Program-made: the position numbers and the translations under genes
Source of the DNA: Verrucomicrobiota bacterium
GTDB taxonomy: Bacteria > Chlamydiota > Chlamydiia > Chlamydiales > SM23-39
Assembly: GCA_018239895.1 (NCBI GenBank)
Contig: JAFEGL010000003.1
Span: 418,212 to 482,211 of the forward strand
Direction: 5' to 3'
Length of the DNA: 64,000 bases
Part shown: one piece after another, positions 54,763 through 56,337 of the stretch
How the letters are laid out: the number at the start of each line of letters is the position of its first letter
Position numbering within the stretch: the first letter of the stretch is position 1
The notes under the pieces: generated by a model
Told to the model about the DNA's origin: nothing
The model's database searches: none
Seen by the model: the letters and a program-made list of their open reading frames with translations, nothing else

Positions 54763-56337
54763 ATGATTAGAACAAATGACTACGTTTCAAATTTGAATTT
54801 AAATCAATTTGGAAGGCAATTTTCACAAACTTTTTTAAATCGATATTGTAAATTTATCCATTCCCATCCGACGACGGCTAAAGTGATCCAGATCGCCGCG
54901 ATCGCCCTGGGGGCAGCTCTCCTCGTCGCCTCGTTTTTTCTCTCTCCCGCTATCGGGATCGGACTCGGGATTTTAGGCGCCGTCACCCTCCTGACAGGAG
55001 CCCTTACATTCAAATACGGCCACTTTTTAACCGTGCCCCACGACATGAAAAGGCATGCGTTTAAGGAAGGGGGGATGAACGGCTGCAGCTTGAGATATTG
55101 CAACGACGTGCCGATTTTCACTATCGAGAACGACGACCCAATGAAAGTTGGCGAAGCGCACGGCTTTCTCCTCGCCCCACAGATCCAGGCCATCCGGCAG
55201 AAATTCAACAAGGCGCTCCACGGCATCGCAAGGCGCCCGGTGCCTGAGGAGATTGCCACAGTCATCGACGAAGTGAGCAAGAGGATCCCAGACCCTTACA
55301 TGCAAGAGCTCAAAGGATTGGTCATTGGATTCAACCGCTGGGCAGGAAATGACCACTCGATCCCCCTTTTGACAGACAAAGAGATGATCCTGTTCCATCT
55401 GATGCCCGACAGCGTCCACTTCAAGCTCATGCAAGAGAAAGAAAAGCCGCCTGCGCCGGCCGCCGCTCCAGCGCCCGTGCCGGTACCAGTGCAGGCTCCC
55501 GCATCGCCCATAGCGCCTTTAGTCCCGGCCCCTCTGGTTCCAGCTTTGGCTGGAAGTGCATCAGCTCTTGCGAGTCAATCTTCATCCAACATCGCGTGCA
55601 CAGCGATCGCCGCGAGAGATCTTCTCGCGCGGAATCTCGATTGGCCCACCATGGGAATTGCAGGAGCTGGCAGCATCGTCACCGTCCGGAAGCAAAAAAT
55701 GGGAGAGCCGATTGTCGAAGTGGGATTTGCCGGATTCATCGGCACCTTGACCGGGATGAAAGGATCTCTCCGATTGGCCATGAACATCTGCGATGGCAAT
55801 ACAGATAAGGTCGAAGGGATGCCAGCCGCCTTTTTGAATCGGCAATGTTTAGAAACTTGCTCGACAGTCCAAGAAGTTCAAGCGCACTTAGAAAACAACC
55901 GCTCTCTCGGCCCGTATCACATCACAGCGGCCGATAAAGAGGGGGCGAGAGCGTTCCATTTGCTCCAAATCGATGGAGATGTGAAGCCGCTTGTTCGGGA
56001 ATATGTCGATGGGGAAAATCCTCTCATCGTGACCAACTGCCGCTACACATCGACTGCGGGGGGAGAGGCGAGTCATAGAAGCTGTAGCCTTGAGCGGGGA
56101 GCGATCCTCAACGAGTTTTTCCAAGATGCGAAGGCGAAAACGGACGATTTTGATCTAGGAGAGCTAGCTCCGGTCGGACTATCGTTGCCTTTTGTCGACA
56201 ACTGGGAGAGCGCCCACCGAGTGATTATGAAGGGAGACGGGAGCCTCGAGGTGAGCTTCGACAACGGTTTTGCTGGGAGCGCGCCGCTGTGCAGGCTGAC
56301 TCGCGAAGAGCTCGTCGAAGAACCATTGCGAGCTTGA
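54763..56337 (+). CDS. Inc-like bilobed hydrophobic domain fused to a C45 (acyl-CoA:6-APA acyltransferase-like) Ntn-hydrolase domain
   Basis: - Residues about 41-83 (nt 54883-55011), VIQIAAIALGAALLVASFFLSPAIGIGLGILGAVTLLTGALTF, form the hydrophobic domain.
- The alpha-subunit-like part is ENDDPMKVGEAHGFLLAPQIQ.
- A Pro/Ala linker follows.
- The nucleophile context is NIACTAIAARDLLARNLDW (Cys279). Confidence 0.65.
   Translation: MIRTNDYVSNLNLNQFGRQFSQTFLNRYCKFIHSHPTTAKVIQIAAIALGAALLVASFFLSPAIGIGLGILGAVTLLTGALTFKYGHFLTVPHDMKRHAFKEGGMNGCSLRYCNDVPIFTIENDDPMKVGEAHGFLLAPQIQAIRQKFNKALHGIARRPVPEEIATVIDEVSKRIPDPYMQELKGLVIGFNRWAGNDHSIPLLTDKEMILFHLMPDSVHFKLMQEKEKPPAPAAAPAPVPVPVQAPASPIAPLVPAPLVPALAGSASALASQSSSNIACTAIAARDLLARNLDWPTMGIAGAGSIVTVRKQKMGEPIVEVGFAGFIGTLTGMKGSLRLAMNICDGNTDKVEGMPAAFLNRQCLETCSTVQEVQAHLENNRSLGPYHITAADKEGARAFHLLQIDGDVKPLVREYVDGENPLIVTNCRYTSTAGGEASHRSCSLERGAILNEFFQDAKAKTDDFDLGELAPVGLSLPFVDNWESAHRVIMKGDGSLEVSFDNGFAGSAPLCRLTREELVEEPLRA

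Follow-up and report, generated by a model that had tools for sequence, protein, structure and literature searches.

Acyl-CoA:isopenicillin N acyltransferase (AAT, also AAT/IAT or PenDE) of Penicillium chrysogenum, the founding member of the C45 group of N-terminal nucleophile (Ntn) hydrolases, is a proenzyme that processes itself at Gly102-Cys103 to give an α/β heterodimer (PMC7183595). The lysosomal acid ceramidase (ASAH1) and NAAA are Cys-Ntn amidases that act on membrane lipid amides, cleavage uncovering a hydrophobic substrate channel, and the α and β chains of acid ceramidase stay tightly associated after autocleavage (PMC5915598). By their bioinformatic definition, chlamydial inclusion membrane (Inc) proteins have one or more bilobed hydrophobic domains, each made of two helices 15-32 residues long with a loop of fewer than 30, and an N-terminal signal for type III secretion (PMC3048545). 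The gene described here lies in a stretch of 64,000 nucleotides (contig JAFEGL010000003.1 of assembly GCA_018239895.1, positions 418,212 to 482,211; hereafter the window) and encodes a protein in which a hydrophobic hairpin of the Inc type precedes a C45-type domain. The product is, we are confident, a chlamydial Ntn proenzyme of the C45 type that is anchored in a membrane and keeps its full catalytic set, and on balance we favour the fuller reading that it is a membrane-tethered amidohydrolase proenzyme of the C45/AAT lineage with an Inc-type anchor. The protein is identical to NCBI MBS0624874.1, annotated 'hypothetical protein', and its open reading frame (ORF), divergent from the gene of an AAA+ protein (52817..54643, minus strand), was confirmed as an earlier sequence-only reading of the window, made without database searches, had drawn it. 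Inc proteins are, to our knowledge, mostly adaptors that bind host factors, and it is unusual for an Inc-type anchor to carry a recognisable enzyme fold; known Incs mostly have coiled-coil or short binding motifs instead. In the open-access literature we found no Inc with an Ntn-hydrolase domain and no description of a chlamydial C45/Ntn Inc-like protein.

The assignment to the C45-type Ntn hydrolases, proposed by the sequence-only reading, is carried by profile searches, predicted fold and residue conservation, which agree. The NCBIfam profile C45_proenzyme matches residues 125-453 with an E of 3.5e-23 (82.4 bits), and the Pfam AAT profile (PF03417), at 24.5 bits, just passes its gathering cut-off of 23.2. 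An exhaustive HMMER search returned 500 representative proteins at E <=1e-3, 101 of them at E <=1e-30 (word-indexed homologue searches gave only one or two proteins each); most of these relatives are 450-520 residues long, and the alignment runs from about residue 15-30 to the C-terminus. Pfam AAT is found in 91 of 99 relatives and CBAH in 32. Set against PDB sequences, a profile of the family matched the β chains of acid ceramidase (E 3.5e-13) and NAAA (5e-13) and also AAT (1.7e-11), and in these alignments the cysteine coincides with the first residue of the β chain in NAAA and in acid ceramidase (6mhm) and with AAT Cys103; a PDB search with the 524-residue sequence by itself gave only low-complexity matches to the Pro/Ala linker described below. 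The resemblance to Ntn hydrolases far exceeds what chance would give, and the C45/AAT profile match is marginal for this divergent protein and clear for its family.

An AlphaFold model built on the 99-sequence family alignment has a mean predicted local distance difference test score (pLDDT) of 91.1 and a predicted template-modelling score (pTM) of 0.89, only the linker being disordered; prediction from the single sequence reached only pLDDT 40. The model has the αββα Ntn fold, with an α part and a β part, and its best matches in a Foldseek search of the PDB are to Penicillium AAT (2x1d, 2x1c and 2x1e; E 2e-12, target TM 0.70-0.73, with 0.73 for 2x1d, over ~440 columns), followed by acid ceramidase 5u84 (target TM 0.69) and NAAA 6dxw (target TM 0.70), with bile salt hydrolases and other Ntn hydrolases at lower ranks. 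The first β-strand (residues 280-284) starts directly after Cys279. This cysteine, equivalent to acid ceramidase C143, is kept in 97 of 99 relatives, the residue before it being Gly in 49 and Ala in 47, and it lies within ACTAIAARDLLARNLDW (residues 278-294), the nucleophile motif that the sequence-only reading had singled out and that was found as described. Because an Ntn fold is predicted and Cys279 is so widely kept, that reading also survives two of the findings, no such fold and an unconserved cysteine, by which it had proposed to be judged. Most relatives share the pattern CT-x(14)-R-N-x-D-W, with arginine at Cys+16 and aspartate at Cys+19, the spacing of ceramidase C143/R159/D162. On the alignment, the Cys/Arg/Asp/Asn/Arg set that marks Cys-Ntn amidases is complete (Table 1).

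AAT (PDB 2X1C/2X1D/2X1E) is the described system that comes closest, both in fold and as the best curated-profile family, and it shares the order of an α part followed by a small residue and cysteine (Gly102-Cys103 against Ala278-Cys279). It differs in being a soluble, peroxisomal, fungal enzyme of 357 residues without a membrane anchor, with a short junction and with β-lactam intermediates as substrates, and the structural alignment shows only 13-14% identity. Acid ceramidase and NAAA (PDB 5U7Z, 5U84, 6DXW, 6DY3), the second and third structural matches, resemble the protein in that the family-profile match to their β chains begins exactly at the nucleophile Cys and, for ceramidase, in a CT..(12)..GRN.D motif nearly equal to the ceramidase sequence. 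They are, however, eukaryotic, glycosylated, signal-peptide-targeted enzymes of acid pH, whose membrane binding is peripheral and involves no transmembrane hairpin, and the ceramidase chains are additionally disulfide-linked (PMC5915598). We treat this relation, a likeness in motif and in membrane context, as one of working alike and not as membership, because the 524-residue protein has no significant Pfam CBAH match, no match to a ceramidase/NAAA α-subunit was seen and AAT ranks first structurally. The bile salt hydrolases and penicillin V acylases (C59) are weaker matches that share the superfamily fold and the Cys/Arg/Asp/Asn/Arg chemistry; they have no α-domain, and their Cys2 is exposed once the initiator Met or a short leader has been removed, whereas here the cysteine stands at 279, behind a 125-residue α-domain and a linker, and the C59 architecture is not found. 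Insect Tan (N-β-alanyl-dopamine hydrolase) is a C45 proenzyme with Gly-Cys self-processing that hydrolyses a small non-peptide amide, but it is a soluble, cytosolic animal protein with no membrane anchor.

Upstream of the nucleophile, the α-subunit-like segment noted in the sequence-only reading was recovered, DDPMKVGEAHGFLLAPQIQ occupying residues 124-142, where the C45_proenzyme match opens (residue 125). Taken from residue 96, the α-domain is a stretch of 125 residues (96-220) set between anchor and cleavage site. It includes G130 and E182, both invariant, and G134, conserved in 95 of 99 relatives, and the model has pLDDT >90 across residues 101-220. The Pro/Ala/Val linker of the same reading is also present, Pro/Ala-rich as described, and its length is 58 residues (221-278) where 45 had been given. 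Pro and Ala make up 48% of it against 14% of the remainder of the protein (binomial tail 4e-10, uncorrected for the choice of segment), and it is predicted to be disordered, with block-mean pLDDT 42-67 over residues 231-280 and values below 50 at 250-273. No other of the 99 relatives has so long a linker; in the remaining 98 it spans 4-35 residues and is unconserved, on which ground a Pro/Ala linker was rejected as a defining feature of the family. Expansion of a DNA tandem repeat was rejected as its source, a repeat scan having found none under the linker. On this comparison the linker is best described as a lineage-specific expansion of an insertion-tolerant loop.

By analogy with the solved relatives, the folded chain would cut itself between Ala278 and Cys279, giving an α chain of residues 1-278 (anchor, α-domain and Pro/Ala tail) and a β chain of residues 279-524. 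The Pro/Ala junction would then become a floppy C-terminal tail of the α chain, uncovering the active site, and the new α-amino group and the thiol of Cys279 would attack a linear non-peptide amide bond to form an acyl-thioester, to be resolved by water (hydrolysis) or by an amine (acyl transfer). Self-cleavage before Cys279, with the chains staying together, is in our judgement likely. The sequence-only reading had warned that such a cut would free the catalytic chain from the membrane unless the two chains remained associated, and this is largely answered: the active heterodimer should stay on the membrane because the α-domain lies between anchor and cut and would pack against the β-domain; in acid ceramidase the chains remain joined. 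Retention of the β chain is likely but not certain, because the AAT α chain dissociates easily.

The anchor itself is the textbook bilobed hydrophobic domain that had been placed at about residues 41-83, and both hydropathy and the model bear it out. Hydropathy gives a single unbroken hydrophobic stretch (37-84) with lobes at about 41-60 and 64-83 divided at 'LSP', and AlphaFold gives helices at 36-56 and 62-90 with pLDDT ~96-98. Hydrophobic segments occur at the equivalent N-terminal position in 92 of 98 full-length relatives; the 524-residue protein has no further genuine transmembrane segment, the hydrophobic run at 249-270 being the Pro-rich linker. The hairpin, with its turn of ~3 residues, falls within the bilobed-domain definition of PMC3048545. 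The label 'Inc-like' given by the sequence-only reading holds for the architecture, the hairpin being widely kept, and for the taxon (see below), and by these sequence-based features the protein is a candidate Inc. No Sec-type signal peptide is present at the N-terminus. Residues 1-26 are poorly conserved across the family (mean top-residue frequency 0.19, 28% gaps), and the first 24 residues of its members are enriched in Ser, Thr and Gln. The segment that follows, residues 27-40, is invariant in the 19 closest relatives, and among 98 relatives H33 is kept in 50, H35 in 67, P36 in 68 and K40 in 71; beyond the hairpin the counts are 55 for H93, 57 for M95, 68 for H98 and 93 for F/Y100. The moderately conserved histidines H33, H35, H93 and H98 flank the hairpin on one side of the membrane, where they might coordinate a metal or touch the catalytic domain at an interface. 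The protein is like the Incs in its chlamydial origin, in its single bilobed domain some 40 residues from an unconserved, signal-peptide-free N-terminus and in its large C-terminal domain, and unlike them in the unusually good conservation of the hairpin flanks.

The source organism is chlamydial. Genes of the window run in the order lnt-lpxC-fabZ-lpxA-fmt-[Inc-like ORF]-comEA-like-rplC...secY-rpsM-rpsK-rpoA-rplQ-gapA-grgA, and the order from lnt to grgA is that of C. trachomatis CT534 to CT504. A GrgA homologue is encoded at 27879..28622 (+), directly after gapA (NF045799, E 1e-35); GrgA is reported to be without homologues outside the chlamydiae and to be conserved in environmental chlamydiae (PMC10790707). 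It is on this homologue and the lnt-to-gapA gene order that the chlamydial assignment rests, and on the same grounds the Verrucomicrobia origin given by the record was rejected, the NCBI label 'Verrucomicrobia bacterium' being imprecise at best. The label may stem from a taxonomy that nests the chlamydiae in that phylum.

Among the relatives found, the hairpin-C45 family occurs almost only in Chlamydiae. A genome scan of one genome per species, with two peptide patterns drawn from a five-sequence alignment, gave at least 25 loci, a lower bound because only two patterns were used; the titles of these loci name Chlamydiae, Chlamydiales, Chlamydiia, Parachlamydiaceae, Parachlamydia or Rhabdochlamydia in 19 cases, no taxon in five and Verrucomicrobiae in one. 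Most relatives that bear a name derive from Chlamydiae MAGs, and among 20 relatives looked up by cluster a single taxon name, Parachlamydiaceae, was obtained. The genes have no conserved neighbourhood, and paralogues and tandem copies occur, all of which is typical of effector genes. Two tandem copies lie at 5968..9026 of the chromosome of the Parachlamydiaceae isolate SSA5 (CP058704.1), the first split into ORFs 5968-6681 and 6733-7488, a break that points to a pseudogene or to faulty sequencing, and the metagenome-assembled genome (MAG) JTS-AC372 has two copies on separate contigs. In one relative, P0033 (741 residues; 8001..10226 of a 33.8-kb contig, Logan SRR21358978), a protein tyrosine phosphatase (PTP) domain stands in frame before the hairpin and the C45 domain. 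This phosphatase is of the classical eukaryote type (PF00102, E 2e-48), with HCSAGIGRT and WPD motifs intact, and sits directly before the pre-hairpin motif; because both ends of the hairpin lie on one side of the membrane, phosphatase and C45 domain would share a compartment, and the fusion hints at host exposure. In another relative, P0061 (589 residues; contigs up to 50 kb), the C-terminal part is replaced or extended by an Rce1-like CAAX/CPBP intramembrane protease domain (PF02517, E 5e-10).

Where the enzyme works is less secure than what it is. If the hairpin is an Inc-type anchor, a type III system would deliver an unfolded precursor that then enters the inclusion membrane, its N- and C-terminus both on the side of the host cytosol. 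Export would have to come before self-processing, since cleavage leaves the N-terminal export signal on the α chain alone. We give type III export and inclusion-membrane insertion, with the enzyme facing the host cytosol, an even chance or slightly better.

Several observations weigh against the Inc-anchored, self-processing enzyme that we favour. The C45_proenzyme score lies just under the curated cut-off of 85, and the Pfam AAT match covers only 65 of the 524 residues. The first β-hairpin of the catalytic domain has lost five residues, so that its arginine is at Cys+11 and not Cys+16, and this deletion or the 58-residue junction could slow or change processing. The α chain of P. chrysogenum AAT parts easily from the β chain during purification (PMC7183595). 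The two-pattern genome scan found no member in a cultured chlamydia, which is not evidence of absence, and the phosphatase fusion is one sequence on one metagenomic contig. The hairpin flanks (27-40 and 84-100) are conserved and the whole N-terminus is modelled with high confidence, which speaks rather for a membrane module built into the overall structure than for a secretion signal that is disordered throughout; hairpin and enzyme may therefore form one structural unit. Finally, both flanks are net positive (mean +1.0 and +0.7), from which, were the protein in the inner membrane, an N-in/C-in topology would follow, with the enzyme in the bacterial cytoplasm.

These last points suit the alternative that the hairpin is an ordinary bacterial inner-membrane anchor on an unsecreted protein, the C45 domain facing the bacterial cytoplasm and acting at the inner leaflet on a bacterial or imported lipid or metabolite. 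The positive flanks accord with the positive-inside rule, the conserved flanking motifs and the confidently modelled N-terminus are what such a module would show, and an Ntn proenzyme that folded in the bacterium would cut itself before export, an argument against type III delivery unless folding were prevented; the bilobed-domain prediction is, moreover, a bioinformatic criterion only (PMC3048545). Other features sit badly with a bacterial location: some 40 N-terminal residues, a tight hairpin and a large C-terminal domain without a signal peptide form the pattern of an Inc, in a family found mainly in Chlamydiae; residues 1-26 are unconserved and the family N-termini abound in Ser, Thr and Gln, which is usual for secretion signals; a eukaryote-type phosphatase on the C45 side of P0033 makes little sense in the bacterial cytoplasm; and there is no conserved metabolic neighbourhood. 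We consider an inner-membrane location the less likely of the two, and the protein would in that case be an ordinary, though unstudied, membrane-bound amidase.

A different question is what the acyl-thioester is used for, and the weakest step in the reading that we favour is its substrate, which we conjecture, and only tentatively, to be a membrane lipid amide such as a ceramide or an N-acylethanolamine. The enzyme might instead be mainly an acyltransferase, the acyl group on Cys279 being passed to an amine, so that N-acyl amides would be made at the membrane, with acyl-CoA as one possible donor, and not broken down; such an activity fits either location. The best profile and structure matches are to acyl-CoA:isopenicillin N acyltransferase and the NCBI family is named 'autoproteolytic acyltransferase/hydrolase'; AAT is itself described as an Ntn hydrolase with five related activities (PMC7183595). 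Acid ceramidase, NAAA and bile salt hydrolase, however, are hydrolases of this superfamily, and the family profile does slightly better on the ceramidase and NAAA β chains than on AAT. We consider a mainly acyl-transferring enzyme rather unlikely.

It is very improbable that this particular copy neither processes itself nor is active, the 58-residue insertion and the five-residue deletion having disabled autoproteolysis and left a membrane scaffold or binding protein. None of the 99 relatives has a longer junction, the Cys-to-Arg spacing here has fallen from 16 to 11, and members of the family without the cysteine do exist. Nevertheless, no catalytic residue has been lost, nor has the small residue in front of the cysteine, the shortened hairpin is modelled with pLDDT ~98, and the cleavage-site region evidently tolerates insertions, because the junction differs in length from member to member and shows no conservation in the family as a whole. 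The nucleophile is missing in two relatives, P0056, with Gly in this column, which suggests a pseudoenzyme, and P0145, with Ser, a nucleophile in other Ntn hydrolases. That the ORF is an artefact of assembly or gene calling, joining an unrelated membrane segment to a C45 gene, might be thought of for a singleton cluster from a MAG and is effectively refuted because the full-length architecture is shared by ~100 independent clusters from many samples and assemblers.

The family extends over at least ~100 sequence clusters from Parachlamydiaceae, Rhabdochlamydiaceae and chlamydial MAGs of several other projects, and the protein is a candidate enzyme at the interface between host and bacterium. 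Pathogenic Chlamydia acquire host ceramide and sphingomyelin at the inclusion interface; if the inclusion-membrane location is correct, the bacteria studied here would perform amide-bond chemistry directly at the host interface, and the protein would be a natural example of an Ntn proenzyme that has to match its self-activation to protein export. One may go further and speculate, although we think it improbable in its entirety, that environmental chlamydiae deploy a family of enzymatic Incs that are exported unfolded, inserted in the vacuole membrane and only then self-cleaved at Ala/Gly-Cys into host-facing lipid amidases of the ceramidase/NAAA kind, or N-acyltransferases, that harvest or rewire host sphingolipid or fatty-amide signalling, cleavage after translocation serving as a built-in timer that silences the enzyme inside the bacterium. 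At NCBI both this protein and the one relative whose name was retrieved are 'hypothetical', and a profile made from the family alignment would annotate the relatives. Thanks to the catalytic cysteine, the prediction lends itself to inexpensive tests, by point mutation and by the covalent probes already available for Cys-Ntn amidases, such as the β-lactam ARN726, which is bound in the NAAA structures 6DY0 and 6DY2.

Table 1. Features of the gene, its product and the upstream spacer, with positions in the window
Feature	Position	Strand	Details	Basis
Whole gene, C45/AAT-type Ntn-hydrolase proenzyme with membrane anchor	54763..56337	+	524 residues; ATG start, stop included	
AT-rich spacer between the divergent AAA+ and C45 genes	54644..54762		119 bp; promoters presumed inside	read from sequence
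Residues 1-26, hydrophilic, poorly conserved N-terminus	54763..54840	+	candidate type III secretion signal	family alignment
Residues 27-40, conserved pre-hairpin segment	54841..54882	+	consensus W-I-H-x-H-P-T-x-x-K	family alignment
Residues 41-83, bilobed hydrophobic domain	54883..55011	+	helices 41-60 and 64-83, ~3-residue turn	hydropathy, AlphaFold
Residues 84-100, conserved post-hairpin segment	55012..55062	+	P-x-H-D-M-x-x-H-x-F	family alignment
Residues 101-220, α-subunit-like domain	55063..55422	+	strands 103-121, helices 126-218; contains DDPMKVGEAHGFLLAPQIQ	profile, AlphaFold
Residues 221-278, disordered Pro/Ala-rich junction	55423..55596	+	ends at predicted scissile bond Ala278/Cys279	alignment, AlphaFold
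Residues 279-524, catalytic β-domain	55597..56334	+		alignment, family profile
Cys279 codon	55597..55599	+	predicted N-terminal nucleophile of the β chain	alignment
R290 codon	55630-55632	+	kept in 95/99; aligns with acid ceramidase R159	
D293 codon	55639-55641	+	kept in 97/99; aligns with acid ceramidase D162	
N341 codon	55783-55785	+	kept in 98/99; region of acid ceramidase N224/E225	
N425 codon	56035-56037	+	kept in 99/99; two residues from acid ceramidase N320 in the hidden Markov model (HMM) alignment	
R445 codon	56095-56097	+	kept in 99/99; aligns with acid ceramidase R333	

The surroundings of the gene hold further proteins of note. A scan for consensus promoters and terminators gave nothing above the shuffled-sequence background, the spacer upstream of the C45 gene included. 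The divergent AAA+ neighbour encodes a ClpB-like protein of 608 residues, of which nucleotide-binding domain 1 (NBD1) and the coiled-coil middle domain (~200-540) match 1qvr with an E of 5e-26, and it bears an Inc-like bilobed hydrophobic domain of its own at residues 144-192; a single-ring ATPase of the Clp/Hsp100 type on an Inc-like anchor is unusual. An operon or conserved partnership of this gene with the C45 gene was considered and rejected, as the AAA+ gene adjoins none of the relatives and no neighbourhood is conserved at related loci. A further bilobed hydrophobic domain (residues 219-267) is found in the 312-residue product of ORF 12851..13789 (+), between fmt and the ribosomal protein genes, which has no Pfam or NCBIfam match and which occupies the position of the inclusion-associated CT529 (Cap1) of C. 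trachomatis. ORFs 51037..51681, 62089..63093, 63101..63994 and 41501..43558, also flanking, had no family match. At 48157..50895 (-), 4 kb from the C45 gene, a protein of 912 residues contains many ankyrin repeats (Ank_2, E 9e-53), a typical feature of eukaryote-like effectors that we count, beside the phosphatase fusion, as a hint of host exposure. Immediately downstream of the C45 gene, 56574..61986 (-) encodes an RHS/YD-repeat protein of 1677 residues that ends in a ribonuclease domain of the barnase type (PF00545, residues 1600-1676). Next comes an immunity gene of the barstar family (PF01337), whose listed ORF overlaps the 3' end of the toxin by ~120 bp, so that the true start probably lies further in, and by their domain content the two genes are a polymorphic toxin/immunity pair in an intracellular bacterium.

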